Part shown: positions 29,227 to 64,000 of the stretch, piece by piece
Position numbering within the stretch: the first letter of the stretch is position 1
Layout of the letters: every line of letters starts with the position of its first letter
IMG/VR virus record: IMGVR_UViG_3300046786_000304
Coordinates: 32,001 to 96,000 of that record
Strand: one strand, 5' to 3'
From: a virus
Lineage: Duplodnaviria > Caudoviricetes
DNA: 64,000 nucleotides
Position numbers and translations under genes: made by a program
The notes under the pieces: model-generated
Databases searched by the model: none
Seen by the model: only the letters and a program-made list of their open reading frames with translations
Told to the model about the DNA's origin: nothing

Positions 29227-29228
29227 AG

Positions 29229-29771: not shown

Positions 29772-29773
29772 TT

Positions 29774-32965: not shown

Positions 32966-32966
32966 T

Positions 32967-36773: not shown

Positions 36774-37387
36774 TTGCCTGTTCCATAATGTGGGAATTTA
36801 GATTTGTATTCATACCAGATAACATCTTCGGGAATATCACGCTTGTGATTCCATGTTGCTACTGTGGGAGTATTAGTTGATACTGCGTTATCTTCTACAA
36901 TGAAATATAAAGGCAAATTAAAGTTTCTAGCGTACTTGTGTACTTCATAAAAGATGCCGCTTTCAAAACTCATGTCCCCAATAAAACACCAAACTTTTTC
37001 ATCGCTGCCGCTGTCTTTAATTGATTGTGCAACACCTAAAGCAATAGATAAAGTTCCGCCAACAATAGCACTGGCGTAAAATTTATTGTCTAAATTACAT
37101 ATAGTAATGCTCTTACCAGCTAGGATATCTTGTTCAATAATTGCGGGATCAATGCCTTTGAGCAGTGCATGATAATGACTACGCCAAGTAGAAAATACCC
37201 AGTCTGTTGTTTTAATTCTTTTGAAGATTTCAATTAGCTGTTCTTCATTATTGTTTGACAAGTGTACAGGGCCGCGGATTTTAGCATTTTCCCAGTGGTT
37301 TACAATTTTATCTTCGAATGCTATTAAATCTTCTTTGGTCAAGCTAATTGGCCTTACAACTTCATATTTGTCAATATTTTTAATCAT
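36758..37387 (-). CDS. TPP-dependent dehydrogenase E1-alpha-like subunit, short form
   Basis: GPVHLS, STWRSHYHAL, SAIVGG and TPP-binding GDMSFESG..VEDN motifs; only 209 aa. Confidence 0.88.
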   Translation of the reverse strand: MIKNIDKYEVVRPISLTKEDLIAFEDKIVNHWENAKIRGPVHLSNNNEEQLIEIFKRIKTTDWVFSTWRSHYHALLKGIDPAIIEQDILAGKSITICNLDNKFYASAIVGGTLSIALGVAQSIKDSGSDEKVWCFIGDMSFESGIFYEVHKYARNFNLPLYFIVEDNAVSTNTPTVATWNHKRDIPEDVIWYEYKSKFPHYGTGKWVVF

Positions 37388-37395
37388 TTTTTTCC

Positions 37396-37956
37396 TTAGG
37401 GTTTAACAAGATACCAAAGTGTACCTGTAATTTTTGCTTTCTGATTGAACATTTCTTCCAATCTATGTACATTCTGATTTACGTCAGGAAATTCTATAGG
37501 GAGACCAGTGGTGTACGGAGTGTAATCGTGGCCTGCTACAATTCCTCCTGATTTAACAAAAGGAAGGAAATGTTCTATAATAGACCAGTCGCTGGGATTA
37601 TAATGTCCTGCATCAATGAAGAATACGTCTATTGGTCTTGGATCAGTGTAGCCAGCGTGTTCAGGAGTTAGTCCTCTAATTGGTATTATGTTTTTATATT
37701 CTGCTGTGTTCTTTTGAAACTCTTCCCATGTATTACACGGGTTTCCTTCGTGATCTGTTAATTCTTCGTAAAAAATATCAAAACAATATATAGTAACAGA
37801 AGGGTCTGCGCTCATTGCCCATGCTACAGAACTTTTGCCACAAAAACTTCCTACTTCCACTATAACGCCGACTTCAGGCACTGTTTTAGCCAATGATTCG
37901 ATTACTTGAAGTTCGTTTTCAAACATCCATCCTTTAATATCTAGTTTATATGGCAT
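37396..37956 (-). CDS. Class I SAM-dependent methyltransferase (Methyltransf_24-like)
   Basis: IVEVGSFCGKS, DVFFIDAGHY and GGIVAGHDY motifs. Confidence 0.88.
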   Translation of the reverse strand: MPYKLDIKGWMFENELQVIESLAKTVPEVGVIVEVGSFCGKSSVAWAMSADPSVTIYCFDIFYEELTDHEGNPCNTWEEFQKNTAEYKNIIPIRGLTPEHAGYTDPRPIDVFFIDAGHYNPSDWSIIEHFLPFVKSGGIVAGHDYTPYTTGLPIEFPDVNQNVHRLEEMFNQKAKITGTLWYLVKP

Positions 37957-41597: not shown

Positions 41598-42256
41598 GGT
41601 ATTTGTATATTCTTAAGAAATGTTTTTACTTTCTTAGCCAAAGCAGAATGTGCTTTTTCATTGGGATGATACCCGTCACTACATTTCATTCCTTTGTTTA
41701 CACAATATACTTCATATACAGAAGTATTGTAGCCTAAGACAAATTTATTTGTTGGCAATAACTTAACCATGTTTTTATATTGCTCTTCGAATGGTTCTTT
41801 GTTTATTTCTTCTAAAAAAGAATTAATAAAAGCGTAGGGTATTTTCTTTGCTTCTAAAAAGGATGCTACGAATATTTGTTGTGTGTAATATTCCATCAAG
41901 CCTTCGTAGTCATTGTATACATGTTCGTACCAATGATCTTTCTTCTTTTTAAGATATGGATCTTCGGGCTCATAACCTAATAACACATTTTCCCATTTTT
42001 TAAATTCTGGGTGATATATTGCTGTACGGGAAAGTCCAGTCCAAGAAAACAGCACCAATACTTGTTCTGGATTTTCTATATCAGCAAAATCGTTGAGTAA
42101 ATTAATTATGCTGAGTTTGTTTGAGCCACCTGGAATACCTTTGTTAACAACTGGCAGTTTCATTGACTTGCCCAATTTAGCAGGCCACGCATCCTCAGAT
42201 GCTACACCGTCGCCAGATGTAAAGCTATCTCCGTATGCGTAAATCTTGTCAATCAT
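41594..42256 (-). CDS. SGNH/GDSL-like protein
   Basis: AYGDSFTSG, NKGIPGGSN and DGYHPNEKAH motifs. Start at 42256 with SD AAGGA. Confidence 0.75.
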   Translation of the reverse strand: MIDKIYAYGDSFTSGDGVASEDAWPAKLGKSMKLPVVNKGIPGGSNKLSIINLLNDFADIENPEQVLVLFSWTGLSRTAIYHPEFKKWENVLLGYEPEDPYLKKKKDHWYEHVYNDYEGLMEYYTQQIFVASFLEAKKIPYAFINSFLEEINKEPFEEQYKNMVKLLPTNKFVLGYNTSVYEVYCVNKGMKCSDGYHPNEKAHSALAKKVKTFLKNIQIP

Positions 42257-43694
42257 TTTCCTTATATACCCCGGTCTCAGCAAAAGTAATTCCAGACTGT
42301 TCTACTAACTTGACAACTTCATATTTTTTATTAAGTTCTATGCTTTCATACCAGTCGGCAATTTCTGGAAATGTATTAACTATGTTTTTGTTTCTTCTAG
42401 CATCATACTGTGAATAGAAACTTTTGAAGTCATGGAATAATGCTGTCTTATCATGTGTTGTAGATACGTGTCCAGTTTGTACAACTTCAAGATAATCAAT
42501 TAATCGTTTAATGCTGGCTTTTTCTCCAGCTTCTAAATACTGACTATGCTCGTGTTTGTTATACCAAGCAGATAGTTTTGCGTGTACTTCGTCTTTGAGA
42601 TCGTTGGGTAGCGTAACTGGACTCATGTATGCGGGCCAGCGTAGAATATTTAAATCCAAATAAGGTCTATTGTTGCCATATTTTTGTTTAAGTTCCAACA
42701 TATCGTCCATGAACTCTGTGATACTAAACAGGCACAGGTTAGATATAGTCATCATGATTGTGACATTTCTAAACTTAGCATTTTCGATAAAGTTAACTAG
42801 ATTACTGCGCCATACTTTATAGTCCATACCGTCACGTAAATACTCTGCGTGTAAGCCAAAGCTTTCGTTGCTAGTAAACAAATCAAACTCTTTAACTGGC
42901 AATGTCTTAGTTACTTCAATTAATCGTTCCAATGCTCGTGGACTTGAGCCTAGGTTACTGTTAACTGCAAAGCGCATATCCAAGTATTCATTCTTTTCTG
43001 TGATGATATCAATAAAGCGCCAAAAGTTTTGACTAACTGTACACTCACCGCCAGTGATGCGTAGTTCTTGCAAGCTCTTAGACAAGTCGGGCCACCATTC
43101 AAAGAAAGCCTCTACATAAGGATTGTCGTCTAAATGACGTCCATATGCTGTACTCCAAGCACCATCAGTTTGATATGCGCCACCTCCGCCGCCTTCGGCA
43201 ACAAAGTTTTGATAAGGACCATTCTTGGCAATATCATAACTCCATGTTGTACTGTAACCTGCGTTACAGTAACTACAAGCAAAGTTACATTGTCTATCAA
43301 AGCTAATTTCTAATGTTTTAAGATTAACATCATCAGCCCAGTTCATTGACTGAATCTTTTTAATATCTTCTGCGCTGTATATAATACTTTTATTAATGCG
43401 ATCGCTGATGTTGTTTCTACCAATGCCTTCTACTTTCCAGCAATAACCGCACTCTGCCGGCTTTTTACCTTCCAGCATCATTTTACGCATACGCTTTTTA
43501 TGATCAGTGTTATGCAAACCGCTGGGGTTGTAACTGATTTCACTAACGTCAATTGGATGAGGCAAAGGTAAGTGACAGCTACCGGTATAACCAGACCCTA
43601 AAAAGATACTGGCATTATACCACTTAGCCGCACAAAAGCTGGGACTAATTGAATTGAGATTTTCATCTCTCCATTTAATTAAGTCATCAGACAT
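42249..43694 (-). CDS. Radical SAM protein with N-terminal CxxKW/SCH domain
   Basis: CAAKW..GSCH..CGYCW, CNFACSYC and TGGE motifs. Confidence 0.9.
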   Translation of the reverse strand: MSDDLIKWRDENLNSISPSFCAAKWYNASIFLGSGYTGSCHLPLPHPIDVSEISYNPSGLHNTDHKKRMRKMMLEGKKPAECGYCWKVEGIGRNNISDRINKSIIYSAEDIKKIQSMNWADDVNLKTLEISFDRQCNFACSYCNAGYSTTWSYDIAKNGPYQNFVAEGGGGGAYQTDGAWSTAYGRHLDDNPYVEAFFEWWPDLSKSLQELRITGGECTVSQNFWRFIDIITEKNEYLDMRFAVNSNLGSSPRALERLIEVTKTLPVKEFDLFTSNESFGLHAEYLRDGMDYKVWRSNLVNFIENAKFRNVTIMMTISNLCLFSITEFMDDMLELKQKYGNNRPYLDLNILRWPAYMSPVTLPNDLKDEVHAKLSAWYNKHEHSQYLEAGEKASIKRLIDYLEVVQTGHVSTTHDKTALFHDFKSFYSQYDARRNKNIVNTFPEIADWYESIELNKKYEVVKLVEQSGITFAETGVYKEND

Positions 43695-45264
43695 CTTTGT
43701 TAACTACCTTTTGTTTCATTGCTTTACAAATGTTATAAAATTCTGTGTACTCTGGATATACTTCTAAAAAGTTTGTACCATAGCGACGATCCAAGTCATT
43801 GACAAAGTCATAGAACTTAGCACGATTTAATGTAAAGTCTTTGTTACCTTCAAAATCATTCTTTGAGTTGTAAGCAATGTTCAAACATACACGTTTGAAT
43901 TTTTCAAGCTCAAACTCTTCAAACGCATGATGCATCTTCCAAGTCTTAGTCTGTGTTGTATGATCCGCCATATAGTTAATACTTGGCAACAAATACTCTT
44001 GGATAAGATCTTTACTGGCCCACTGTGCGTCCAAGAATGTTGGATTACGCAAGTAAGGCAAGTCAATGCCATTGATACTAGGATGACTTGTAGTCTTTTT
44101 ACTTCTATCTGTATATGACTCTCCGGGATAGGCAAAGTTAAAGCCTGTGTCCTTTTCCCACATGTCAGCAACAACTGGGTTAGGATTATATTTCTTTCTA
44201 AGTTCTAGTTGCCATTCAAACAATTTTTGTATACTGGAAATACTTAGAATGTTAAATGTAACCATCGTAGTAATTCTAATATTACCCATGGCCATAATCT
44301 GTTCGTAACGCTTACAGAACTTTTCAAAGTCCAAGCCTGGACGCAGATATTCGGCACGTTCGCCCCAACCATCTACACTGGTAAAGATAGTTAACTTCTT
44401 AATGTAATTGCCGCGGCTTAGGATCTCAGCACGTTCAATGAACTTGTCCCATAACTTGTCAGGTACACCCATGTTCGTATTGATACTAAGTTCAAGTTCA
44501 GGATTTGGATTTTCAATGAACCAATCCATACTTCTATAAGTTTCTTTACTAAGCAAAGGCTCGCCGCCTGTGATACGGAATACATGTAAGTGTTTGTAAG
44601 CTTCTGGCCACCACTTCCAAAATGCGTCAATGTAAGGATTGAATTCGTTGTTCTTATAACTTAGACTGTCTAAGTCCTTTTGCCAACCTTGTGCCCATAG
44701 AGTATGGTCTGTATTTTCTAATAGCTTAACAGGACCGTTTTGTTTTAGTTCCTCAACCCATTTACTGCTATACTCAGGACCGCAGTAAACGCATTTAAAG
44801 TTACATACGTTGCTAAAGTCTACTTCCAAATAACTTGGGTAAAAGTCTTGACTAGGATCACTGGCTTGAATCTCGTCATGCTTTTCCAATGCCCATGGCT
44901 CTAAACTCTTGTAAAATCTATCACTGGGACTTTTGTTATCTTCTACACGCCAGCAGTAGTCGCATTCTTTGGGACGCTGGCCCTCCATCATTTCTCTTCT
45001 TGCTTTTCTTAATATGCCGGTGTTAAACAATGCGCCAGGATTACGTTGAATTTCCTCTAATGGAATCTTATGTGGCACCGGGTGGTGACAACTGTGTGTC
45101 ATACCAGTACCCAAATGCATGGTAACTTGTGTAAATTTAGCAAGGCAAAATCCAGGACCTGTACTATCTAATAATTCTTTTGTTTTATCGATATTCGGTC
45201 CAGTACGGGCTACTTTTTTATCGTAGCCGATATCCCAGTTAATATCGCTGAGTTTCTTTTTCAT
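43687..45264 (-). CDS. Radical SAM protein with N-terminal CxxKF/SCH domain
   Basis: CLAKF..HSCHH..CDYCW, CNFKCVYC and TGGEP motifs. Confidence 0.9.
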   Translation of the reverse strand: MKKKLSDINWDIGYDKKVARTGPNIDKTKELLDSTGPGFCLAKFTQVTMHLGTGMTHSCHHPVPHKIPLEEIQRNPGALFNTGILRKARREMMEGQRPKECDYCWRVEDNKSPSDRFYKSLEPWALEKHDEIQASDPSQDFYPSYLEVDFSNVCNFKCVYCGPEYSSKWVEELKQNGPVKLLENTDHTLWAQGWQKDLDSLSYKNNEFNPYIDAFWKWWPEAYKHLHVFRITGGEPLLSKETYRSMDWFIENPNPELELSINTNMGVPDKLWDKFIERAEILSRGNYIKKLTIFTSVDGWGERAEYLRPGLDFEKFCKRYEQIMAMGNIRITTMVTFNILSISSIQKLFEWQLELRKKYNPNPVVADMWEKDTGFNFAYPGESYTDRSKKTTSHPSINGIDLPYLRNPTFLDAQWASKDLIQEYLLPSINYMADHTTQTKTWKMHHAFEEFELEKFKRVCLNIAYNSKNDFEGNKDFTLNRAKFYDFVNDLDRRYGTNFLEVYPEYTEFYNICKAMKQKVVNKDV

Positions 45265-45273: not shown

Positions 45274-46245
45274 TTAATTTATGCTGTTATCTACTTGGCT
45301 CTCTTTAACTAGAGCGCCTAACCTGGGAGGGTTAATAAAACTTTCTTTAAACATGCGACTGCCATTAAAATCTAATTCTGCAATCTCTAAATTTAAATTT
45401 GTGCGTAGTTCTTGACCAAACTTGTAAATTTCTTTTTTCAATTTCTCTGGATCATAGTTCCATCCAGTGGCATTACATCTTCCGCCTTCTCCCTCGAACT
45501 GCGGTTTAACACTATTTTCCCAGAACTGATCATGCCAGTCAAAATCTCTACAAGCTGTAAAATCAAAACTATCTTTAGCCAAGTTAGTTAGATATGCGCC
45601 TAGTCTAGTTCCAAACATTGCCCAATGTCCGTTCTCTACATCAGCACCTACACTTGACCATACCAAGAAACGTTTATAGTTACGCTCATGAACTTGTTCT
45701 TTAAGACGACGCGGATCCACTGTTACACCGCCACTGAGTAACAGTTTAACGCCTTCGCGGAATCCAGCTCTGTATGCTTGGTAAGCACTGGCATTATTGT
45801 GTACATCACAGTAGATATTATTCATTTGGAAGTAATAGATATCCCAACAGAAATCAACTTTGGCTTTTGGATCATCTGCGTTTTCATGTGTACGCATTTG
45901 TTCGACTACATGCTTGGGCCACATCTTAATACCGCCATTGCCGTAGACTAATCCATTGATAACATTCTTGCCGGCCCAACTAACAATATCATGTTTGCCT
46001 ATCTTGCTCATGTCTAATTCTAAACTAAAGAATTCATCACGAACAATGTTGTCGGCATCGATGGTAATAAAGCGATCTGTTTCTGCTACTCTGGCTGCTT
46101 CTTTGTGTGCGTTATCGAAACCTTTAACGCCATGAACACGTTTAGCCCATGGTGCTTTTTCTAATAGGTTTGCATAATTCTTATCTGCGTTTGGTTCGTC
46201 GTAGCTTAAAAATACGATATCAAAACTTGTAATAGGTACTGACAT
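45274..46245 (-). CDS. Glycosyltransferase-like protein (GT-A, DxD), paralog family 1
   Basis: FLSYDEPNAD, TIDADN, NGLVYGNGGIKMW and AYRAGFREGVKL motifs. ATG at 46245 with SD GAGGA. Confidence 0.6.
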   Translation of the reverse strand: MSVPITSFDIVFLSYDEPNADKNYANLLEKAPWAKRVHGVKGFDNAHKEAARVAETDRFITIDADNIVRDEFFSLELDMSKIGKHDIVSWAGKNVINGLVYGNGGIKMWPKHVVEQMRTHENADDPKAKVDFCWDIYYFQMNNIYCDVHNNASAYQAYRAGFREGVKLLLSGGVTVDPRRLKEQVHERNYKRFLVWSSVGADVENGHWAMFGTRLGAYLTNLAKDSFDFTACRDFDWHDQFWENSVKPQFEGEGGRCNATGWNYDPEKLKKEIYKFGQELRTNLNLEIAELDFNGSRMFKESFINPPRLGALVKESQVDNSIN

Positions 46246-47185
46246 TTGCGTCCTCAATATGTAAATGGTGATAATTCGAAATTATCTTAACTGGTGTAGC
46301 GGCTTTTAATTTTAACTCTACTAAATTAAAATTATCTAATTCATTGGTATTTAAAGTGACTGTGTCTAAAATCTGGCTAGGATCGTTGCTGTTATACATA
46401 TAAAAGGTTATCTTGTTGTCCAGATTAAAATTTTTAGTTTCAGACATTACGCTTTGAATTTGTAGTTTACTTCCAATTTGTTTATATACCAACGTTGGTT
46501 TAAATTTTGTAGATGCCACTGGAATAAAATACGGATCTTTATCCACACTGATTTTAAAATTATGATTATAGTGTAAAAAACGTAAGTTGTCAAATGAATT
46601 TGGATCATTGGGCAACCATTTACAAGAAAAAACTTGGTCCTGGTTGTAAAATAAATCTTTGACGTTTAACCTTAGTGTATCGTAAAGTCTGCTTGGTTCT
46701 TGTTTATCTATACAATAAATTTCCATGCTTTCAGGCATCATTGATAAATGATACTCAGTGGTCTTTTCTTTAGTGTATTCTTGTTTGAAATTTTCATATA
46801 TGAAATTGGCATTGATTTTCTTTGTTACAAAATCGCAATGTAAATGAATAAAATTCTTGTCATCGCTTTCGCCGTAGACATAATCAAATTCCCATCGTTT
46901 ATGATCTCTATGCTTGTACAGAACTCTAGTGTCTGTATCAGCATCGTATCTTATTTTTAACTTATGTAATGGAAGTTTATTATAAAAGATTTCACGAAGT
47001 AAATCATTTTCATCTAATTCTAAATTTGCCCGACGAGGGTTTGTTAGTTCGACTTCGTAGGGTGCAATGCCTAATACTTGATAAGTTAATTTGTCATACT
47101 CAACATAAAATTTTCTATTCTTACTTTCTTTCTTTTTAAGAATAGTTTTTTGTATGTCAAATTCGCTATCATCGATGTTAAGCAT
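46220..47185 (-). CDS. Hypothetical protein
   Basis: 321-aa ORF in operon context; no motif recognised. Confidence 0.7.
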   Translation of the reverse strand: MLNIDDSEFDIQKTILKKKESKNRKFYVEYDKLTYQVLGIAPYEVELTNPRRANLELDENDLLREIFYNKLPLHKLKIRYDADTDTRVLYKHRDHKRWEFDYVYGESDDKNFIHLHCDFVTKKINANFIYENFKQEYTKEKTTEYHLSMMPESMEIYCIDKQEPSRLYDTLRLNVKDLFYNQDQVFSCKWLPNDPNSFDNLRFLHYNHNFKISVDKDPYFIPVASTKFKPTLVYKQIGSKLQIQSVMSETKNFNLDNKITFYMYNSNDPSQILDTVTLNTNELDNFNLVELKLKAATPVKIISNYHHLHIEDANVSTYYKF

Positions 47186-48025
47186 TTAAATGAATTTTTT
47201 TCTTAGATTAGTTAAAGTGTCGTCAGTTAACCAAGCACTTGTGTTATATTTAACTAAGCCTAATTGAATATAATTTTCAATTTTTATATCGCCTTGGTCG
47301 TTTACCCAATAAGATAAAAACTCAGTCCATGGTTTTTTTGACCATTGATCATTAACAAAGCTATTTTCTCTAATACTTAAATCAATTAAATTTACAAAGT
47401 CAAATTTAGTTATTTTAAGTCCTAATATTTTGTACATCAATGACATTAACCACTGTGGCCATAGGTATTTAGGAAATGGCGGCATTGAATTGTTTTCTTT
47501 ATCAGCAAAGAAATCAATAATTTGATTTTGATTGTATGTAGAAGCAATCAGTACTGCCATGCCGAATACATAATCACAGCCCTTGTCTTTGTTGAAATAT
47601 ATTGCGTCTAATATAGATCCTTCGCCAAAACTTTTTTGCTCAACTGAACCTTCAGTGTATAAAGAATAATCTAGCAATTCTCCATTGAAACTGGATCTAG
47701 TTTTGGGTATAACTATACTATTCATACCTCTAAGATTTTCCCAAACATCAACGTTAAAATTAGTTAAAATTTGATCAGGATTAAATGCAATAGTTTTTGT
47801 ATAAGGGCTGGCCAATAAAGAATGGAAATATCTTGCTGATAAAATCTCATCGGGTTCCATATAAATTTCTTGATCAATATACAGCAAATATTTTTTTAAG
47901 TTTTTTTCATGGGCAATAATACTGATTGGTCTTTCCTTGTCAAACAGTCGTATACTCTTAACCAGAAGTTCAACTCTGGTTAAGTTTTTCATATTACAAT
48001 TAACTATTAAGTAACCTTCAGTCAT
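47186..48025 (-). CDS. Degenerate GT-A-like protein, paralog of 48018-48914
   Basis: GYLIV.., SPYTKTIAFNPD (NxD where the paralog has DxD). Confidence 0.45.
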   Translation of the reverse strand: MTEGYLIVNCNMKNLTRVELLVKSIRLFDKERPISIIAHEKNLKKYLLYIDQEIYMEPDEILSARYFHSLLASPYTKTIAFNPDQILTNFNVDVWENLRGMNSIVIPKTRSSFNGELLDYSLYTEGSVEQKSFGEGSILDAIYFNKDKGCDYVFGMAVLIASTYNQNQIIDFFADKENNSMPPFPKYLWPQWLMSLMYKILGLKITKFDFVNLIDLSIRENSFVNDQWSKKPWTEFLSYWVNDQGDIKIENYIQLGLVKYNTSAWLTDDTLTNLRKKFI

Positions 48026-48914
48026 ATATCATTGTTTTAATTTTATCATAATGTCTCAGAATGGCCATTTTATTCATGACGTGGACATTTTCATTTTTAA
48101 CTCTACTAGCAATACTTTTCCACAATTCTTTTGGATCAGGACAAACTAAGACCATGTCATTGATTTCTTTGAACTCAGCAATGTCGTCGATTTGTTCGCT
48201 GAATCGCATAACTTTACCAGGTAGTTCATGTATTAAATTTCCCTGTCTATGACCATTTAAAATGTGTACAGCTATACTTACAGCATAGTCCGTTCTAAAC
48301 AATACTCCAGGAAACTTATACAACCATTTATAGTAGTTATAGTTTTCCTTGACATGTTCCCATACTCCAAAGAATAACTTAGCAAGTTCGCTGTCGCTTC
48401 TCCAGTATACAGCAGTCGACCACCACATGTCAATACCATCTGGATGAAGTTTTTGTTCCCATATACGTGGTTTATAATTTCGAACACTTAATGCCTGTTT
48501 GTACATAGCAACTTCACTGTCTGTATCAAAAATAGCATCTAATGTATCATTGCCAATCAAATAGTCAACGTCGATCATCAATGTTTTGTTGTAAGGGCTT
48601 TTGTTGAAAATACTGTGCTTGTTTTTATTATTAAATTGCGTAGTAAATTCATTCCATGGACTATCTCGATGTGTTCGAGTATTTCGTTCGTGTGTCACAT
48701 TATCAATGATAATATGATCAAAAGTTTCTGCTGCCAGTGCAGGAGTTAGTTCTGCTGTTAACGCATCGAACGTTGGCTGATCTGTTAATAACGTTACATG
48801 ATTGTTAGTCATGTGTAACTTAACACATCTGGCCGCTACCAATGCTAATTTTTCGTAATCGATTTTGCCATTGTTATAAGCAATCAGCAATATACCAGAA
48901 TCAAACTTACTCAT
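48018..48914 (-). CDS. Nucleotide-diphospho-sugar transferase (GT-A, GT8-like)
   Basis: GILLIAYNN, SPYNKTLMIDVDY (DxD), WSTAVYW and FRTDYAVSIA motifs. Confidence 0.65.
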   Translation of the reverse strand: MSKFDSGILLIAYNNGKIDYEKLALVAARCVKLHMTNNHVTLLTDQPTFDALTAELTPALAAETFDHIIIDNVTHERNTRTHRDSPWNEFTTQFNNKNKHSIFNKSPYNKTLMIDVDYLIGNDTLDAIFDTDSEVAMYKQALSVRNYKPRIWEQKLHPDGIDMWWSTAVYWRSDSELAKLFFGVWEHVKENYNYYKWLYKFPGVLFRTDYAVSIAVHILNGHRQGNLIHELPGKVMRFSEQIDDIAEFKEINDMVLVCPDPKELWKSIASRVKNENVHVMNKMAILRHYDKIKTMIYD

Positions 48915-49260
48915 TTAGACCAACCAACCCTTTAGTGTCACGTTGTTTTTTGAGTTTTTCGTTTTCCACATAATATTCATTTAATGCTTCTGTATAAGCA
49001 CTGAAAAGCTTTTCGTGGAATTCTTTAATGTTAGTAACTAGTACCGGGTTTTCGTTGTCGTCTAAAAATATATAACGTTCAACATTCATGTCTATTAATT
49101 GTTTAACAAAATTAATTAATTCTAAGTTTGTTGTAAAAAGAGAACTCATGTAACCAATAGTTAACATGGTATTCATGCGTTGTTTGAGATTTAGCTTTTG
49201 GTTGTTCAGCGTTAACCGATAGTTACTGAACTCCAAAGCAGCCTTGAGTTTATCGTCCAT
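48907..49260 (-). CDS. Hypothetical protein, first gene of the modification operon (possible tail-fibre chaperone)
   Basis: Likely start at MDDKL (49260) with SD GGAG; sits between the tail-fibre-like gene and the GT genes. Confidence 0.6.
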   Translation of the reverse strand: MDDKLKAALEFSNYRLTLNNQKLNLKQRMNTMLTIGYMSSLFTTNLELINFVKQLIDMNVERYIFLDDNENPVLVTNIKEFHEKLFSAYTEALNEYYVENEKLKKQRDTKGLVGLNE

Positions 49261-49289
49261 CCAGAGCTCCATTATGTGCTATTTTAATT

Positions 49290-49297
49290 TATTTATA
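49290..49297 (-). promoter_or_regulatory. T4-type late promoter box TATAAATA
   Basis: + strand TATTTATA at 49290-49297 in the intergenic gap, facing the GT/radical SAM operon. Confidence 0.65.
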
Positions 49298-49311: not shown

Positions 49312-50409
49312 TTATGAAGCAGTAGAGTTACTTGAATTTATATATGATGGACCTGTAATGTCGAAAGAAGCATTGCCTATAGTTTTTGGTGTTGCTTTAT
49401 TGCTTTCTACATACAATGTATGTGTACCAGTTACTTGAGAAGTATTACCGCAACTCAAACGAACTGTTAATACTAATTGTACCGGACCGCTTACATAATC
49501 GGCTCCTGTGGATACAATTCTGCCGTAGATTCGAATTTTTTGGCTGCCGCTTCCGCCATTGCCATAACCATATGATCCATAACCATATCCATACGATCCT
49601 GCACCATATCCATAGCCATAACCATAACCATAACCATCATAGCAATTACCATAACCATAACCGTACCCATAGCCATAACCATAACCGTACCCATAACCGT
49701 ATCCATAGCCGCCGCCACTGCCGCTTCGGCAATTAACAGTTAACAATAATTGATCAACTTCGTTTAAATCTTCAAAGCCTTTGCCTTCGCTGATAATGTT
49801 AGCAGTAGTAGACAATGTATTATCTAAACTAAGGCTAACTGTACCTAATCTATTATAAACATGTGCCCAACTAGCCGCTAAATTATTTCCGCCCAATGAG
49901 GACAAATTTAATCTAATAGAACTTCCACTATTGAAGTAGTAACGTGCTTTTTCGTAATTAGTAAAGCTCAATCTAACTGTATAAGTTAATGCACCACCAA
50001 AACCAGTTGTGTGTGCAATATTTCCCAAACTACTAATAGCTGTTTGCCCCATGGCCGCTATATTTTTCTTAGGGTCAATATCGTCTAATACAGTTTGCAA
50101 ATCATGCCAAATGCTGGCTGTAATTTTCTGGCCAGAAATAACTCTATCTAATTCATATTGTCCACCTACATGCTCTGAACCAATGTTAAGTCTATCAACA
50201 ACTTGATTTACTAGCGCGGCGGAAATTTTAGTTCCTACGTTTACACTAGATGCTTCTGCGTTTCCCCAGCCATATGCCTGCAATGCTCTTCTAACTAAGT
50301 TTGCAGTCGGCGAGCTTGTTGGATAATTATCGGCAAATATTTTGTTGGTATGCGAAACCAACACGTTGTAATCATTTGCCGTGATTTTTTTACCGACTGC
50401 TACTGTCAT
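49312..50409 (-). CDS. Putative virion/tail-fibre-like protein with (Tyr-Gly)n tract
   Basis: 365 aa, Gly/Ser/Thr-rich, repeated 'G.KI.A..' segments, ARYYFNSGSSIRL. Coupled to the upstream tail gene. Confidence 0.6.
   Translation of the reverse strand: MTVAVGKKITANDYNVLVSHTNKIFADNYPTSSPTANLVRRALQAYGWGNAEASSVNVGTKISAALVNQVVDRLNIGSEHVGGQYELDRVISGQKITASIWHDLQTVLDDIDPKKNIAAMGQTAISSLGNIAHTTGFGGALTYTVRLSFTNYEKARYYFNSGSSIRLNLSSLGGNNLAASWAHVYNRLGTVSLSLDNTLSTTANIISEGKGFEDLNEVDQLLLTVNCRSGSGGGYGYGYGYGYGYGYGYGYGYGNCYDGYGYGYGYGYGAGSYGYGYGSYGYGNGGSGSQKIRIYGRIVSTGADYVSGPVQLVLTVRLSCGNTSQVTGTHTLYVESNKATPKTIGNASFDITGPSYINSSNSTAS
49561..49716 (-). repeat. Coding hexamer repeat encoding (YG)10-NCYDG-(YG)5-AGS-(YG)3-S-(YG)2
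   Basis: Counted from sequence: 21 Tyr in 48 codons. Mixed codons TAT/TAC and GGT/GGC/GGG/GGA. Confidence 0.95.
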
Positions 50410-58000: not shown

Positions 58001-60751
58001 AAATGGCATATTTGTCGACATTATACCAAATTTGCTCAACGGTTCATTGTGCTTTAATAATGTACCGCCACCTAAGATTGTTGTTTGTAATAATGCGTCA
58101 CTGTCAATCGATTCCCTAATGTTTGTAGAATGAGATTTAATATTAGTAGCATGTTGATACAAACTGTAATAATTAATATCAGACAATTTCTTGTTTAAAG
58201 GATTAATTTTCAACGACATAGGCGCTGTTCTGGTCGTTGGCCAAGTAACTATACTGTTAACCGCAAGTTTGTCGCCTGATTTAGCTTTCTTATCTAAGCT
58301 ACTTGTTGAAACAATTTTTTGATTAGAATCTAAAGATCCATCGGCACGTGTGACATCGGATATCGTATAATCGTATCCGTTGAATACTGGATTGGTCTGA
58401 TCTTTGATATAAACGTCTTGTAAGAATCTCCATTTATTAACAGGTTTAACTGTTGCCGGCTTATAAGTCGCTGTTGCAAATTTCCAAAGCAATCTTGTAT
58501 TTTCAACGAACAATTCATTATCTATATAAGATGAATCAACTAGTATACTGTCGGATAAGTCTAATTCTATCGCACCATTTCTTATTCCATTATTAACACA
58601 ATAAGGTGCTGTCAATGCCACTGGTGTTGTAACATTATTAATTACCGGAGCTTTAAATATCGTCAGTATTTCAGGCAAGTCATGGCAGACTATTTTAAAT
58701 TTGCCGCCAGATACTAATGGAATAAAAGATTCATATGCATTAAAACCTTTTTTACTTGAAAATTCAATTAATCCATAACCTGTTACTTCGAAATAAAATC
58801 TAAGAACTTTTTTAGTATCGTAGTATACATGTATAGTATCAAATCCAGTGGCAATTGGACTAACCGATGCAGACCATGGTTCTTCTGTTAAACTTTCATA
58901 TTGAAGATCTTGAATCTGTTTTGTAAAATTTAAGCCTTTTCTATTTTGATAGAAAGGAACAATCCTATTAAGATATTGATATCCGTATGGTCCTGATAAG
59001 ACTACGTTTTCGCCAGTGGTTGCGTCACTATAAGAATAAGATGAATCAACGTCTGTTATAAATTTTAATTGATTTGGGCTTACCGCGCTAGAATTATTTT
59101 CATCAATTAAGTCAAAGTCAATGCTACTTACTTCTATATGCTTATCAAGTACAGCATCATACGTGTTACCATCCTTGAAGCCTAAAATAATGCCGCCAGC
59201 GAACTGTGTCTCATTTAAATTTTCTAAATTAACGCCATCGCTTTTAAAGAATTGAAACAATAAGTTTTGATTCTTGGTTGTTTTGTTTTGTGCTAGTTGC
59301 CATTTATTATTTTTGTATATGACTCTATGATAACGTAGATCTGTTTTAGCAACAATAAGGGCGCCGTCTAATGAAACACTTGTATAAACCTTTTCAAAAG
59401 TAATACCAGTACCTACACCGGATACTTTATAAATTCCGTTAGTACCTTCAAAAACTACAAGATCGTTGTTTTGTACAGAATAACCATAGCTATCTTTTAA
59501 AGTTAGTCGTTGTGGACTTGTATATACCCCAATAGTATATGGGAACAAGCATTTAATTTCTGCTTTAGTTGTTGCAGGCCAATTATATACTTTCATGTCT
59601 TTGATGAAAGTAATAATAGGACGCTTGGCTTTATTTTGTACTGTTGCGAATTCTTCTATGCTTACATTTAAAAATTTTGCAACTGCTCTAATAGTATTGA
59701 TATGATACCAATGGTCTATAATTTGCCAGTGATTAGGATTAGCTGATTTCTCTTGCGTGATATATTCAGGTTCGCTGGTAACAATCATGCTACCGTCCCA
59801 CACTTCGCTGGCCCACTTAATTGCCGGTGGATCATCGAATGGACTAGTTTTATCCCATGGTCGTTTTTTAAGCCAACTATTAGGTATTCTTTTATCTATA
59901 GCACTAGCCGGTAATAATCCAATACCGTCGCCTATACCATGAACATAAAAAAGTTTAACTTCTTCGTCAATTGCCTTACCAGTGCCAGTACCCGGGCCAG
60001 TGGCAATAAACGATGTACCAATGATTGGATCTACTGCTCCAATGGCAGTAAAATCCGTAGTACCAAATTCTGTAATTTCATAACTTTTGCCTACAACAAA
60101 ATTTCCAGCGTTTATTTCATTGAAACTTCTATAGGCTCTATCAACATTACCAGTAAAATACAAAGTCATTCCATTTTGTAATTCTAATGTCTGGCCAGTT
60201 AGATCGTCTTTGATTTGAGCAAATGGGCGGCCGAGAACATCATTGGTAATACTGTATTTGTTACTACCACCAGGACCTGGATCTGCATGGATTTGACATG
60301 CTGGCAAATCATTAGCTATCCAATAATACAAATTGTAATCTGTAATTTTAATAGGATTGATTGGCAACTCTAGTACATTGATATCTTTATCTAACATTAC
60401 ACCGTCTTTTAATGGTGCGCCTTTAATAGTTAAATAATTTTCAATGTCTATGTATGAACTCTTGCCAAGATAATTGTCATCCGAATCGGAAATCACTAGC
60501 ATGTTGTTTGCTTGACTTTCGCGACGAATTTCATTACTTTCAACTTTAAAGAATTCTTCGGGTCTATTACTAGCTGTTCTTAATCCATATGTTTCTTTAA
60601 ATGGTAGCAGTTGTCCTTTGCTAGTCATTACATCTAGCGTAGAATCTAACATTTTTTTGTTAGGTTCCGTAGTAAAGACATTAGGTAGTAACTTATAGTT
60701 ACTAACCTTTTGTGCTATTTGTTGATTTGGTTTTTTAGTTTGTCTGCTCAT
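52019..60751 (-). CDS. Very large (2910 aa) virion structural protein, probably baseplate-associated
   Basis: Uninterrupted 8.7-kb ORF coupled (ATGA) to the baseplate wedge gene; contains aromatic CBM-like repeats. Confidence 0.75.
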   Translation of the reverse strand: MSRQTKKPNQQIAQKVSNYKLLPNVFTTEPNKKMLDSTLDVMTSKGQLLPFKETYGLRTASNRPEEFFKVESNEIRRESQANNMLVISDSDDNYLGKSSYIDIENYLTIKGAPLKDGVMLDKDINVLELPINPIKITDYNLYYWIANDLPACQIHADPGPGGSNKYSITNDVLGRPFAQIKDDLTGQTLELQNGMTLYFTGNVDRAYRSFNEINAGNFVVGKSYEITEFGTTDFTAIGAVDPIIGTSFIATGPGTGTGKAIDEEVKLFYVHGIGDGIGLLPASAIDKRIPNSWLKKRPWDKTSPFDDPPAIKWASEVWDGSMIVTSEPEYITQEKSANPNHWQIIDHWYHINTIRAVAKFLNVSIEEFATVQNKAKRPIITFIKDMKVYNWPATTKAEIKCLFPYTIGVYTSPQRLTLKDSYGYSVQNNDLVVFEGTNGIYKVSGVGTGITFEKVYTSVSLDGALIVAKTDLRYHRVIYKNNKWQLAQNKTTKNQNLLFQFFKSDGVNLENLNETQFAGGIILGFKDGNTYDAVLDKHIEVSSIDFDLIDENNSSAVSPNQLKFITDVDSSYSYSDATTGENVVLSGPYGYQYLNRIVPFYQNRKGLNFTKQIQDLQYESLTEEPWSASVSPIATGFDTIHVYYDTKKVLRFYFEVTGYGLIEFSSKKGFNAYESFIPLVSGGKFKIVCHDLPEILTIFKAPVINNVTTPVALTAPYCVNNGIRNGAIELDLSDSILVDSSYIDNELFVENTRLLWKFATATYKPATVKPVNKWRFLQDVYIKDQTNPVFNGYDYTISDVTRADGSLDSNQKIVSTSSLDKKAKSGDKLAVNSIVTWPTTRTAPMSLKINPLNKKLSDINYYSLYQHATNIKSHSTNIRESIDSDALLQTTILGGGTLLKHNEPLSKFGIMSTNMPFDLGDLLIRQGKHYDSFLGKLKTEIESVINSVDETAYSSHDLLTMAISKIYVTTANDNTFWTHSNMMGWGEKLDNYREVNFVVNNNLLFDLTGDFEYISHRAGKEYVLHLILNEQGMPKRYLKRDVDYTLVNGTDEYTQIQFSSDFIGKNVNIKQWYGRYKSQIPASLAKIGLAPVYMPEIIEDTTTPGKFFMYRHDGTRYYLEDGVTDFYPNNLVEQLLYEYELAVWSSITRDIKTNNFRSYVETIPGYFRPLDKGLPAVNQVMLNETKQWLNQNNLFMMPNSDYDANNGFTQIYQLGTGEDIYSMSGSWRLIYQFLFDTDRPHTHPWEMLGYTLKPTWWDTHYSWTDPVKRVELEKALRTGNIDAPPAITINPKFARCNELSMLDEDGISLQNFPVDSDGNLLPPNQLSWLWLTTLNPESAWLPGEGSPYEQVFYNTQWGIAARSKMWYLRNPVQYVNTNWLPGQTILNSWGNKLDRTTNFWQQGNIAHNYHRQVVDGETVYTSGIESLFSEFCILNNKDFVTEVIDKFGNIKVNKEFLLNGFTNKENIRIQSTSINSQQITLFVPEESYAVRTVNHYPDKEIFYSGVRIIWDGEYYIVTGFATEDGYLSYFIPDSNSSVTAVTVGDSTFKQKNTYSNELYYQNYGVRYKNRQDVFDMLIGYGKYLESLGFVFEEPEGGDLRDWQLSAKQFVFWSNSPLAAGSYIDLNPAADELVIKAITGHLDNLEGTNENVGQCVDRFNKPLFSKDLLVNRFNDNRITIKTKDANRSIYGIKLTFSSFETVIHLNSTSVFNDVYFLPEQSTTKRSFVIGGKKSQDWTGAYFAPGYVITDGGIIPNYDSMAERGRNLLDVESVVLDQTVLEASRAQFGLNRNQELRQLFLQEENEILFKNAITYNKGTVEVFNKLAPLTHKDESQAKPYEEYMVRLGELGNTKNIEYYEFEMLSSDIRHPSKTSQVVKFIDKTEPATNDNILYFKNNSKRWVHRPFNKDLTFKTFDRTYHDLATGGPLFEGDTDLVVDTLEGLSGLYDNFAELWSIKHYDETASYKQYDQVRINGKLYYAKTTVSPGTWSANNDKFSQIDEPYLPNIYVRNYYKTNPDLANIGLTEFKPGTWQVLQTVDRNANVVEICPGPDDFSKARISTGTVDYGLKVGDYVLIVNSETTNSSLDGIWKVEKLEQLTETKNSVTTTTYFFYVNTKVSGTSYSGKIFTFKPIRFKNYTDYRLATGTDANAYGYAWKKKYNPFTNAISQTTLTKTDTPSGYNPTWPIAIVDDGLNTDNVEATFDDGNYAVYDSRNWNVPLKEESNPVDPSDIDHLIIYDYADNKTVIKLDLFDPKKLYIPEVFKNDIDVINRVDPAKYNRSTDTYKAVYSSMGWHEEYIGRRWWDTSTTKFSDYESGDELTKEKYWGTTVNNSLPDVYEWTKSPVHPSQWDKLVEKGGTVFGQLASGEVYVDRAMNTDNYHWVEEEDYINGETFTVYYFWVKNKNVIAEQSKQSRVYTTEQLSKVLLNPSAAGIPWWAPISNNAIMLKGVQPYLNNTSTVVQIKKKTKGNEKHQQWIFISEDNTVETIPEWLHVRLRDSLSAHIFYRKRAVYEQFDSTKTYTQDDLVKYNGYFYVCRYTTRGAFQSDAWQALPIQYYSTTKTYNKLDVVLFNDNIYVCKSTASGAWDTTKWQVLPAGSLSVRDIDPTHNTLDFNITKNVPDIFNLHPYGRLGNLVRPYIQSWFDDALEARRTFIKKLNDIMVNVNISNIDAWGNTRLNNQYYVVGDEIIDVTAFWTYADYRSETYDSTKEISLVLESVADIYATTVTTGSYIKINTGIRDYTIFEKNVDGSFSPVYKTKGAIKFSSDLYAPWSLSSWDTIGWDKVPWDYDLNSVYNAILDSLRYEIFIGQYSKYYSKIMCTMFRYVMSEQVGVDWLAKSSTVEPVNLISSTLEVDDSLQRDQITVLANFYNTVKSYRDKIRGGTVDRTVTETVQMEIGEELIIIDNGVQIY
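52973..53221 (-). repeat. Two tandem ~41-aa CBM5/12-like protein repeats
   Basis: YEQFDSTKTYTQDDLVKYNGYFYVC..AWQAL and IQYYSTTKTYNKLDVVLFNDNIYVC..KWQVL. A third copy lies at 54767-54883. Confidence 0.6.
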
Positions 60752-63700
60752 CGACCGATCCTAATGTTGCTGTCAGTAATTTCTGAAATAACTATGATAT
60801 CATTTACCGTTGCTACGCTGGTAACAACTTCATTTCTGTCTGGTTGAATTTGGAATAAAGTACCAAATTTGCTGTCTTGACTTAATGGAACAATAACCAC
60901 ACTACTTAAATCTGTGCTTAAACTTGTGTGTATGTATGCTGCCAATTCAGTGAAGTAAAAAATTTCGCCGAAGTTAAAATTACCTGGTGTAAAAAATTTA
61001 TCGACAGCGGCAATTACTTTGCTTTTTATTTCGCTGTCTGTTAATTTACTTTTTACATTCTTAACTACTTTGAATTGTGCTTGGAATTCTTTGTCTGCTA
61101 AGTTACCAAACAATGGTTTAAATTTAACAGGATGGAATATTAATTCATCTGTCATCATTTTATAACTTAGTAATCCAGCAAAACTACTTCTTAGTTCTTC
61201 TGTTGTTTGTGGCAAAGGTGCAGTAATGCTGGTATTTCCGCTTTTCTTCCAACTAGTGTAATCATCGTTGTAGCTTTTCGTTAAAACATACGCATCGATA
61301 ATATTAGTCAAGCTTGGATTCAATGATTGATCTATGTCAACTACGTGTTCCCACTTAAAGGATAATGTATTTGTCCCTGGTACTGTTTTAACACCGTCTG
61401 CTACGTCGCCTGAAAGAGGAACCAAGTATGTGAAATCACCTTCGTCGTATTCAACTAAAGTTAAACTATCATTGCCTACAGTAGAAATAAAATGTTCAGG
61501 ATCGTCTGGCAAGAAATCATTGTCCAAGTCTAATGGTGTAACTTTAACTTTACTATTGTCAGTATATCCATCGTCATAGACATAATATCCGCTGATCTTA
61601 TAAGCCTTAGACTCTTGTATTTTATTGTTTGTACCTAAGGTTAATAAACTGATAGTATCTTTGCTCATTGAAGAGAAGCTTGGATTAAATGTAGGACTCC
61701 AATTGATGTTATAGAATCTAATAAGTTCGTCACTGCCAAAGATATAATCAAGTTGACGAATAGTAATCTTCCAGCCAGCGCCATCTCTTATACAGGCTAT
61801 TAACCATTCATTGTTATCGCCGGTTCTGTTCCATGTTGATTCGATATTAACTAAGTTATTAATTATAGTCCATCGTGGTGTTAAGTTATCAAATTTTAAT
61901 GCAAAGCTTTCTTTGGCATTTAACTTGGCAATAATTGCCGCTCTTGTTAAATCATCAAACACGCGAGTAAATGGAGGTAAAATTTCCTTAATTAAATCAG
62001 TCGATGTAATAGACTTACTAAGTTCAACAGTACCCATACCATTAACTAGCAAACCTGTATAAACATAATCAATGTCTTCAATGCCTAATCCATCGCCTTT
62101 AACGTCATACACGTTGGCCCAACGTGAAGTGCCTTCCGGTGTTTGTAATCTTAATATTGATCCAGGACGCAAAGAACGCAGTTCTCCGCCTGTTGTAAAT
62201 CCTAATTTTACTGGAGCTTTGTTGCCATTGGATTCGGAAATATAACCATTGCTACTATTGGCATCATTGTATGCCAGTCTCCAACGATAGTCTAAAACTT
62301 TATAAACTCTAGATCCAGCAGTATGACTTGCGGATGCAGTCCCTTGTGTGGCACGTTGAACTCCAATAAATGTTGTGCTATTCTGCATGCCAGTGTACGT
62401 AAACAATTCATCGCCGATCATTAACATGCCACCGTCGATGTCAAAATTATCATAAGGATCATCTGTGTTTGTATGATCAACTACTAATGAATTAAAAACA
62501 TCATTGACACCAATCGCATTGGTTAACGTAGTGTAATAAATTGTTTTTCCTAGTGTAACTGTTGGAAAATAATTTAACGCATTATTTCCAGTGACTCCTT
62601 GTAGATTTAATTTACCATAGTAAAAGTTTAACAAGCCAACATTACTTAATTTGCTTTCAATGTATTCGTCTAATAAGTCCACAGTTCGGCGAGTGCTGTC
62701 ATCTGGAACAAATGCATTTTTAACAGATTCTTCTTTGTATAGATAGCCGTCATCGGCAAATTCCATCAATGGGCGATTCTTGCCTGTTGGATCTTTCAAG
62801 TCAACATATCTGCTATGTCCACTGAATGTTCTATTTTCCGCTTTAAGCACTAATACGTCGTTGTTTAATGTAGGTAAAAATCCGTTGTAGTCATCGGCAG
62901 TAACCATTCTATTTTTACTATAGAATGCTTCTGGTGCGTTGCGTTTAATTTCATCTATAGATTCTGCAGGCAAGCCTGTAACCATGTTGTCCTGCAACTC
63001 CATTGTCAGTGACAATGTCTGTGTTTGGTTGTCTGCGTTACGATAGCTAATATCAAAAGTAACACCAGCGATTTCTCCTGACTTGACTCTGATGAAATTA
63101 TTTTCTGCTGTTCTATACCATACACGAATATTACCAGTAGGAACATTAGTAAACGTACCGTCACCAAATTTAATACTTGTTACGTCATTGTCTGTGTATA
63201 ATACTTCATATATGTCTTTGTTCGCTGAACCATATTCGTTGACAACAATGTTACTAAAGTCCAAGTTACTAACTCGTGTCCATGTTTTAATTACAGATCC
63301 GTTGTCGTCAATTGTTTGTACATAAAAATCTTCTTCACTGATATTATTAGTCAAAGGAATATCAATAACAGCGTTGGCAACTGGACTTGTTATAGGCTCT
63401 ATGGTATTAGAAATATAGCCTTGTTTGGCTAAAAAGAAGAAACCAGTTTTTGTACTGCCAACACCTTTGCCATCATTACGATACATTACACTAAATGAAT
63501 TGTTATAATCTGGTTCGACTTGAGAAATAATACCCGCTGTGTTAATATCAACTGGCACTAAATCAAAGTTTAAATTATAACCATCAACTGTAGCACGAAT
63601 AGGCAAATTAACAATAGCGTTTGTATTATTAAAATTATATATTTCGTATAATGTATTGTTTGTGCTGTTGGTTGTTCGTTTAACTGGATTACCAAATTTA

Positions 63701-64000
63701 TTGTTGTCATTGAAAGCGGCGTTCATGACTCTAATGAAACGTTCATATTCTAATTCGCTGGGATCACTGCCCCACTGTATAGTTTTATTAGATAAGTTTA
63801 CACCTGTGCTGTCAATGATTTGGTCGCTACTAACTGCACTTACTACTTTTAAAAATCCTTGGGCAGGGCGAACACGCTTAGGTTTATAAGACAGCATACG
63901 TGCGATGCGTAATACGCTTTCACGCTTTTCTGCTGTGTCCAGAATGTTTTCTCTGGCATTCAAATCCATACGGAACGCTAGATTTTGTCCTACATAAGCT
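60748..64000 (-). CDS. Baseplate wedge subunit, T4 gp6-like; 5' end lies beyond the window
   Basis: The frame is open to the window edge (AYVGQNLAFRMDLNARENILDTAEKRESVLRIARMLSYKP, a gp6-type N-terminal motif). ESIDEIKRNAP..RMVTADDY matches the baseplate J/gp6 motif. Confidence 0.88.
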   Translation of the reverse strand, partial: AYVGQNLAFRMDLNARENILDTAEKRESVLRIARMLSYKPKRVRPAQGFLKVVSAVSSDQIIDSTGVNLSNKTIQWGSDPSELEYERFIRVMNAAFNDNNKFGNPVKRTTNSTNNTLYEIYNFNNTNAIVNLPIRATVDGYNLNFDLVPVDINTAGIISQVEPDYNNSFSVMYRNDGKGVGSTKTGFFFLAKQGYISNTIEPITSPVANAVIDIPLTNNISEEDFYVQTIDDNGSVIKTWTRVSNLDFSNIVVNEYGSANKDIYEVLYTDNDVTSIKFGDGTFTNVPTGNIRVWYRTAENNFIRVKSGEIAGVTFDISYRNADNQTQTLSLTMELQDNMVTGLPAESIDEIKRNAPEAFYSKNRMVTADDYNGFLPTLNNDVLVLKAENRTFSGHSRYVDLKDPTGKNRPLMEFADDGYLYKEESVKNAFVPDDSTRRTVDLLDEYIESKLSNVGLLNFYYGKLNLQGVTGNNALNYFPTVTLGKTIYYTTLTNAIGVNDVFNSLVVDHTNTDDPYDNFDIDGGMLMIGDELFTYTGMQNSTTFIGVQRATQGTASASHTAGSRVYKVLDYRWRLAYNDANSSNGYISESNGNKAPVKLGFTTGGELRSLRPGSILRLQTPEGTSRWANVYDVKGDGLGIEDIDYVYTGLLVNGMGTVELSKSITSTDLIKEILPPFTRVFDDLTRAAIIAKLNAKESFALKFDNLTPRWTIINNLVNIESTWNRTGDNNEWLIACIRDGAGWKITIRQLDYIFGSDELIRFYNINWSPTFNPSFSSMSKDTISLLTLGTNNKIQESKAYKISGYYVYDDGYTDNSKVKVTPLDLDNDFLPDDPEHFISTVGNDSLTLVEYDEGDFTYLVPLSGDVADGVKTVPGTNTLSFKWEHVVDIDQSLNPSLTNIIDAYVLTKSYNDDYTSWKKSGNTSITAPLPQTTEELRSSFAGLLSYKMMTDELIFHPVKFKPLFGNLADKEFQAQFKVVKNVKSKLTDSEIKSKVIAAVDKFFTPGNFNFGEIFYFTELAAYIHTSLSTDLSSVVIVPLSQDSKFGTLFQIQPDRNEVVTSVATVNDIIVISEITDSNIRIGR

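Follow-up and report, generated by a model that had tools for sequence, protein, structure and literature searches.

What does a phage gain from a run of tyrosines alternating with glycines in a protein encoded among its tail genes? This question is raised by a stretch of 64,000 nucleotides (positions 32,001 to 96,000 of IMG/VR virus record IMGVR_UViG_3300046786_000304; here called the window), in which the 365-residue protein P0001 bears a (Tyr-Gly)n tract. The source of the tract is an uncultured aquatic jumbo myophage. The parent record comprises 233,464 bp and is about 65% complete by the CheckV estimate, and the baseplate wedge protein encoded in the window is 35 to 41% identical to the versions found in the jumbo myophages Salicola SCTP-2, Agrobacterium Atu_ph07, and Pseudomonas PA5oct. 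The first-pass annotation of the window had regarded the tract primarily as a scaffold to be modified by neighboring glycosyltransferases (GTs) or radical S-adenosylmethionine (SAM) enzymes and had kept an aromatic adhesive or low-complexity segment as a fallback idea. Of the readings compared here, this fallback fits best: we propose, with a probability of roughly 45%, that the tract forms a disordered Tyr/Gly surface loop that would act as a multivalent aromatic adhesion or contact element.

Translation of the P0001 gene yielded the tract as it had been described at first pass, that is, alternating YG with 21 Tyr, one break by NCYD, and GS-rich sequence on both flanks. Residues 232 to 284 contain 21 Tyr and 25 Gly among 53 residues, chiefly as alternating YG (positions 49561-49716 correspond to residues 232 to 283). 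Tyr accounts for 4.2% of P0001 outside the tract, which gives a binomial tail of ~9e-16 for the tract itself, and no comparable Y/G segment was present in the other window open reading frames (ORFs) of at least 100 amino acids. The codon count confirmed a mixture of all four Gly codons (GGT 12, GGC 6, GGA 5, and GGG 2) and both Tyr codons (TAT 18 and TAC 3), and Tandem Repeats Finder reported nothing in the tract DNA other than a degenerate 6-nucleotide array (17 copies, 75% match). The gene was then aligned codon by codon with its counterparts in three close relatives (L014, L015, and L016). Within the tract, these comparisons gave 24 to 37 synonymous differences versus 1 to 6 amino acid differences (nonsynonymous/synonymous, 1/37 to 6/29), whereas the gene outside the tract showed 95 to 107 synonymous versus 49 to 54 amino acid differences (49/107 to 54/95). 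All differences in tract length were whole-codon indels, and the NCYDG interruption was retained. Because synonymous changes far exceed amino acid changes and the indels comprise whole codons, the composition of the tract is maintained at the protein level. The YG tract is real and under protein-level purifying selection, as had been supposed from its codons, and the same counts from the three relatives speak against fresh slippage as its origin. Two superficial resemblances were discarded. The C-terminal Tyr clusters of Wzc-type tyrosine kinases (P0036 and P0037) matched the tract weakly and in composition only, with no homology, and a green fluorescent protein-like XYG chromophore was dropped for want of a barrel context.

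An AlphaFold2 model of P0001, built on a 31-sequence alignment (predicted local distance difference test [pLDDT] score of 83; predicted template modeling [pTM] score of 0.80), comprised a helical N-terminal region (approximately residues 1 to 120) followed by a β-sandwich (residues 121 to 365). The tract falls in a low-confidence segment of the sandwich that sits between two confidently modeled strands (residues 220 to 226 and 291 to 300). In the model, the tract is thus a loop, predicted to be disordered, that is inserted between β-sandwich strands, which agrees with the earlier impression of an inserted loop flanked by linkers. A Foldseek search of the PDB with the model returned nothing at an E value of ≤0.001, and a search of BFVD returned three viral proteins of unknown function. 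VIA-align detected weak β-sandwich matches only (Z ≤ 6.4), comprising the jelly-roll inserts of Csp proteases, the tail fiber gp42 of Klebsiella phage Kp9, and galectins. Judging from the predicted structure, the fold is best called a lectin-like sandwich with no assigned family. No family match for P0001 was found in Pfam, PHROG, or NCBIfam (Pfam and PHROG at an E value of ≤0.01), and an Atlas feature search with the N-terminal domain gave no usable match.

The loop site is a variable part of a large protein family. Thirty metagenomic homologs (31 to 83% identity) all carry the tract (30/30), with 5 to 22 Tyr each. A profile of the N-terminal 228 residues of P0001 recovered 1,741 representative clusters at an E value of ≤1e-3 among 1.84 billion proteins. 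Directly after the N-terminal domain, these distant members often show an enrichment in Tyr, Gly, and Ser (YGGYGGYGG, YSGYSGYSG, YSYSYS, YNGYNG, or GGEYG repeats), while others have a short plain loop. Among 136 usable distant representatives, Tyr made up 8.9% of the loop site versus 4.2% elsewhere, and 62 of the 136 had at least 5 Tyr at this site. The 80 IMG/VR loci that we compared ranged from 0 to 23 loop Tyr. Across the relatives, the length of the loop varied between 0 and approximately 60 residues, changing by indels of whole units. Variants of period 2 and of period 3 were both present at the site; the latter occurred in L042 to L051 and L054 to L062, with a maximum of 18 YGG units in L048 (positions 10001-11200). 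With both periods represented, conservation applies to the composition of a fixed site and not to a particular secondary structure. In the same sets of relatives, the loop may contain one or two Cys, as in GGCYGGYGG forms, and the tract of the window is likewise interrupted by a Cys (NCYDG); such residues could serve in disulfide formation or metal binding. Searches of 50,697 phage records by tblastn, with P0001 and with a loop-less relative, gave no match, nor did megablast of the P0001 region. The P0001 family is widespread, uncharacterized, and unannotated.

We propose the following role for this segment. The loop would be an intrinsically disordered, composition-selected Tyr/Gly insert at one fixed site between two β-strands, and the insertion site would be a length- and register-variable hot spot that may be empty or occupied by a few Tyr or by (YG)n, (YGG)n, or YS/YSG runs. 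Since the relatives share the composition of the loop but neither its length nor its period, selection probably favors exposed phenol rings in a flexible array. Such an array would bind weakly and broadly, whether the partner is the envelope of the host, the polysaccharides of that envelope, or a different virion part; we infer that the loop would be exposed on the virion surface and take part in binding there. By analogy, it is akin both to hypervariable loops in known receptor-binding proteins and to synthetic binding loops made only of Tyr, Gly, and Ser. Domains of the [G/S]Y[G/S] type occur in eukaryotic RNA-binding proteins, and minimalist Tyr/Ser/Gly binding loops have been used in engineered antibodies; both share the composition of the phage loop, with Tyr making contacts and Gly or Ser providing flexibility. 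We know of no phage example of either. The closest known case, as far as an analogy can be drawn, is the arrangement of Gly-rich motifs and hypervariable segments in the T-even adhesin gp38. There, too, a Gly-rich segment prone to recombination or slippage lies in a protein of the distal tail fiber module, and the variable loops are thought to contact the host (PMC12032242). The adhesin folds as an ordered polyglycine-II sandwich with four-residue loops (Dunne 2018, cited in PMC12032242). P0001, in contrast, has a single loop of up to ~60 residues, half of them Tyr, that is predicted to be disordered and lies in a β-sandwich of another fold; with no Pfam or PHROG family assigned at an E value of ≤0.01, P0001 is not related in sequence to the gp38 adhesin family.

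Several points weigh against an adhesive loop. In the cultured Ralstonia jumbo phage RsoM2USA, which encodes a loop-less family member (gp355), proteomics covered the ten most abundant bands only; these included the giant protein ORF361 and ORF356 of the same module, and gp355 was not listed (PMC8504454). Members without a loop function, so that the loop is not essential to the core role of the family, and the GT-like genes that invariably adjoin the family gene (see below) leave room for a modification of the loop. Finally, low pLDDT may mask order, such as a polyglycine-II or β arrangement beyond the reach of AlphaFold2, notably in the (YGG)n relatives.

The genomic setting points to a protein of the tail. 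The P0001 gene lies downstream of the genes for the baseplate wedge, a large virion protein, and a tail-fiber-like protein and directly ahead of a run of enzyme genes (Table 1), so that the gene order bears out the position at the end of the tail module claimed at first pass. Its start overlaps the stop of the tail-fiber-like gene. The N-terminal domain of that upstream protein (~80 amino acids) is homologous to an N-terminal extension of RsoM2USA gp355 (L094:8139-9308), and the gp355 domain (~90 amino acids) is also found at the N termini of PA5oct proteins annotated as tail fiber and in several further jumbo phages. In RsoM2USA, the adaptor and family domains thus form one protein, whereas here they are two neighboring proteins, which suggests that they act jointly. 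Longer members of the family are fused to an N-terminal Peptidase_S8 domain (P0054), to fn3 and Big_13 (P0091), or to E1_FCCH-like domains (P0056, P0059, and P0069); fn3/Big_13, E1_FCCH, and subtilase are typical surface modules. The family combines location in a baseplate/tail fiber module with homology or fusion to fiber parts, the two features by which a tail-fiber-type protein is recognized. Support for assigning P0001 to this type is circumstantial, consisting of gene position, the domain shared with RsoM2USA and PA5oct, and the fusions to surface modules.

Table 1. Positions of the tract, its neighbors, and the enzyme genes in the 64,000-nucleotide window
Feature	Positions	Strand	Basis or remark
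Baseplate wedge	60748-63969	-	Tail-module gene order
Virion structural protein, 2,910 amino acids	52019-60751	-	Tail-module gene order
Protein of 190 amino acids	51403-51975	-	Tail-module gene order
Tail-fiber-like protein, 319 amino acids	50409-51368	-	PHROG matches including phrog_19602 (tail fiber); start/stop-coupled to the YG gene
P0001, 365 amino acids, bearing the YG tract	49312-50409	-	ORF and translation; unannotated phage family
Low-confidence loop with the (Tyr-Gly)n tract, residues 230-287	49549-49722	-	pLDDT <50 (AlphaFold2)
TATAAATA copies	268-275 (+), 29219-29226 (-), 49290-49297 (-)		Consensus match
p121, conserved protein of 121 amino acids, first gene of the block, function unknown	48907-49272	-	Alignment A7
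p298, 298 amino acids, GT-A glycosyltransferase-like, predicted GT8/GT24-like fold	48018-48914	-	AlphaFold2 and Foldseek; Atlas lead
p279, 279 amino acids, distant paralog of p298	47186-48025	-	Reciprocal profile searches
p321, 321 amino acids, poorly conserved block member, function unknown	46220-47185	-	Alignment A5, 7 invariant columns
p327, 327 amino acids, enzyme-like and very conserved, with the DxD-type motif DADN	45274-46257	-	Alignments A6 and A8, 71-78% mean column identity
Two N-terminal-twitch radical SAM enzymes (NF033640), after the block	42249-45264	-	NCBIfam, 303.6 and 283.7 bits versus cutoff of 170
Nine ORFs over the NF033640 cutoff	2885-4213, 7132-8334, 10628-12688 (+), 12645-13901, 16507-17712, 17712-19115, 21878-23113, 42249-43694, 43687-45264		
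Four radical SAM ORFs of other types	5743-6924, 13898-14959, 20940-21881, 23120-24292		
Sugar-tailoring set	27604-37956	-	Carbamoyltransferase 27604-29076; split thiamine pyrophosphate (TPP) E1-like pair 36758-37387 and 29229-29771; three short-chain dehydrogenase/reductase (SDR) epimerases/dehydratases; dTDP-sugar 3,5-epimerase; methyltransferase
Asp/Asn β-hydroxylase-like 2-oxoglutarate oxygenase	8387-9124	+	Pfam PF05118, 1.1e-9

The family gene is followed by a block of five genes, p121, p298, p279, p321, and p327, all of which were present in 46 of 46 nonredundant loci with at least 5.3 kb of downstream sequence; the same five follow the family gene in RsoM2USA. None of their products had a family match in Pfam, PHROGs, or NCBIfam. 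The AlphaFold2 model of p298 (pLDDT, 88.7; pTM, 0.90) had as its top Foldseek matches the catalytic domain of UDP-glucose:glycoprotein glucosyltransferase and glycogenin (E value of ~5e-7; probability, 1.0; TM scores of 0.3 to 0.55), and its DxD motif (D115 and D117) is invariant in the alignment. The predicted protein thereby shows the GT8-fold enzyme with DxD that is characteristic of glycogenin-like systems; a p298 profile searched against the sequences of solved structures found nothing. The p298 profile recovered the p279 orthologs (1e-9 to 5e-8), with 1.5e-8 in the opposite direction. Orthologs of p321 were detectable at all loci despite their poor conservation. The Atlas neighbor cluster of p327, which is 44% identical to RsoM2USA gp350, is named "GT2-like", and on this basis p327 is a probable glycosyltransferase, although this is a lead only: it had no Pfam or PDB sequence match, its profile gave spurious ankyrin matches only when run against solved structures, and a relationship to p298 was rejected (hhalign probability, 1%). 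The span labeled GT genes at first pass (45274-48914) thus holds one GT fold (p298), one paralog of it (p279), one probable GT (p327), and one protein of no assigned function (p321), so that the label is partly borne out. Together, the family protein and the five genes, at least one of which has a glycosyltransferase fold by prediction, constitute an ancient invariant six-gene module, of which, like the Tyr/Gly loop and the P0001 family, we found no description in the literature; a search for Tyr-Gly repeats in phage tail fibers also returned nothing relevant. A TATAAATA box occupies the 39-nucleotide gap between the YG gene and p121. This sequence is rare in the window, with 3 copies versus 12.4 expected, and a second copy lies upstream of the carbamoyltransferase gene. 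By their match to the consensus, the copies are consistent with putative T4-type late promoters.

The invariance of this block raises the possibility that the loop tyrosines are O-glycosylation acceptors of the adjacent GT-A enzymes. These enzymes would cover the tail protein with a brush of glycans, drawing on donors from the downstream sugar-nucleotide genes. Glycogenin, a GT8 enzyme, self-glucosylates a Tyr on a flexible arm, and the gene for the GT8/GT24-like p298, a protein with glycogenin among its top matches and an invariant DxD, stands two genes from that of a protein whose flexible segment bears many Tyr. Further points in favor are the constant presence of the five genes after the family protein (46/46 loci and RsoM2USA), the late-promoter-like box that heads them, and the sugar-nucleotide enzymes downstream. 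Bacterial S-layer proteins provide an established case of Tyr O-glycosylation (PMC2943079). Virus-encoded GTs also adjoin structural genes in the virion glycosylation systems of mycobacteriophages and giant viruses (Freeman 2023, cited in PMC12619734; PMC9614988) and are here joined by a large sugar-tailoring cluster. The published phage glycans are placed at the C termini of capsid and tail tube subunits (Freeman 2023, as summarized in PMC12619734), whereas the acceptor considered here would be a Tyr/Gly loop in a protein of the tail module. Four putative glycosyltransferase orthogroups are listed among the core groups of an aquatic jumbo phage lineage ("moraphage"; PMC12619734).

What counts against an acceptor role is that loci with 0 to 2 loop Tyr have the block just the same. 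Locus L012 has no loop Tyr, a full GT-like block, and two radical SAM genes; L077/78 and L087 have 2 loop Tyr each (YYGS in the former), a full block, and radical SAM genes; in L013, the block, including a p298 ortholog, stands beside a loop-less family protein (0 to 2 Tyr); and RsoM2USA gp355, with a plain loop, is accompanied by the block with a shortened p321-like gene, one twitch radical SAM gene, and a p327 paralog. Since the GT-like block accompanies loop-less proteins, the loop is not its required acceptor, and p298 orthologs do not depend on a Tyr-rich segment in L012, L013, L077/78, L087, or RsoM2USA. In glycogenin, moreover, enzyme and acceptor are one protein, whereas here the enzyme and the putative acceptor are separate and relatives without the Tyr loop retain the enzyme. 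The GT8 fold is also generic: lipopolysaccharide, xylan, and galactinol enzymes score the same against p298, and the TM scores are modest. As the block is never absent, co-occurrence is uninformative about an acceptor role; taking all of this together, we regard such a role as unlikely. We would give a little less credence to a more elaborate version, in which glycogenin-like GT-A enzymes build O-glycans at multiple sites of the loop, with unusual sugars from a ~35-kb cluster that has 13 radical SAM genes, and loop-less relatives are glycosylated at other sites. If it were true, a jumbo phage would coat its tail protein with its own Tyr-linked glycan brush.

The loop could also be an element of self-association or oxidative cross-linking that glues subunits or fibers together while the particle is assembled or afterward, for instance by dityrosine, as in resilin and spore coats. 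Dense Tyr with flexible Gly spacers would suit this role, low-complexity [G/S]Y[G/S] segments self-associate, and Cys recurs within the loops of many relatives (NCYDG and GCYGG). Against it, no peroxidase, laccase, or tyrosinase was present among the window ORFs scanned, and the members without a loop assemble nonetheless, which makes cross-linking doubtful in our view. Even less probable is a spacer of low complexity, prone to expansion, that is tolerated but does nothing specific: the variation in length from 0 to ~60 residues by unit indels and the degenerate 6-nucleotide DNA repeat would be expected of it, but synonymous changes strongly exceed amino acid changes within the tract, the NCYDG interruption is kept among close relatives, and even deeply diverged members again have a Tyr-rich composition at this site.

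Radical SAM genes are a conspicuous feature of the region downstream of the block. Two of the twitch type follow it directly, and the window contains 13 radical SAM ORFs in all (within 2885-45264, on both strands), several with SPASM-type matches; the whole 233-kb record has ten ORFs over the NF033640 cutoff. A marine T4-like viral genome with 12 radical SAM genes has been reported (PMC5332604). Beyond the two twitch genes come those for SGNH/DUF6071 proteins, SDR epimerases/dehydratases, a dTDP-sugar epimerase, a split TPP E1-like pair, a methyltransferase, and a carbamoyltransferase, and the sugar-tailoring set suggests that the phage synthesizes branched or carbamoylated deoxysugars. The 2-oxoglutarate oxygenase listed in Table 1 lies among the radical SAM genes. 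In the relatives, the block is followed by 0 to 4 twitch radical SAM copies. Six loci (L054, L055, L056, L062, L010, and L047) combine 6 to 11 loop Tyr and a full block with no radical SAM homolog or long CxxxCxxC ORF within their ~13 to 21 kb; in L010, a dihydrofolate reductase gene follows the block instead. Conversely, L012, L077/78, L087, and RsoM2USA, with 0 to 2 loop Tyr or a plain loop, keep radical SAM genes. Across 35 nonredundant loci with at least 9 kb of downstream sequence, the number of loop Tyr and the number of twitch radical SAM ORFs gave a Spearman rho of -0.18 (P = 0.31; n = 35), which is a descriptive statistic, as the loci are related. The loop and the radical SAM genes thus dissociate in both directions, with no positive covariation; the first-pass annotation had called for an alignment of homologs on this very point and had named equal presence of the tract without the enzyme cluster as grounds for refutation. 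By that standard, the loci compared here, in which loop Tyr do not become more numerous with additional radical SAM genes, refute the radical SAM part of its idea. The proposal that the loop is a substrate of the neighboring radical SAM enzymes, for Tyr cross-links or tailoring like that of ribosomally synthesized and posttranslationally modified peptides, could draw on the two twitch genes 4 kb downstream and the 13 ORFs of the window, several of them with SPASM-type matches, but the loop and these genes dissociate in both directions (rho of -0.18) and the genes sit among sugar-nucleotide and SGNH genes, so that we consider it very improbable.

These comparisons separate what the first reading had merged, namely, the invariant six-gene module and a variable add-on of radical SAM and sugar-tailoring genes. 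Among the 50,697 phage records, RsoM2USA (MG752970.1, 216629-223553; L094) was the only cultured carrier of the module found. Its genes gp355 to gp348, all annotated as hypothetical, encode the family protein, p121, p298, p279, the p321-like protein, p327, a twitch radical SAM enzyme, and a p327 paralog. The order of family protein, block, and twitch radical SAM enzyme is the same as in the window; the difference lies in gp355, which is without a Y/G loop and has the extra N-terminal domain of tail fiber type. The presence of the module in a cultured phage makes it accessible to experiments. Which hosts are open to attachment by a phage is determined by variable loops of its tail proteins, and the Tyr/Gly loop offers a simple handle for adsorption studies in these jumbo phages. 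If the loop does act as an aromatic contact element, it would be a natural counterpart of the minimalist Tyr/Gly loops of antibody engineering, selected across a widespread lineage of uncultured jumbo phages.

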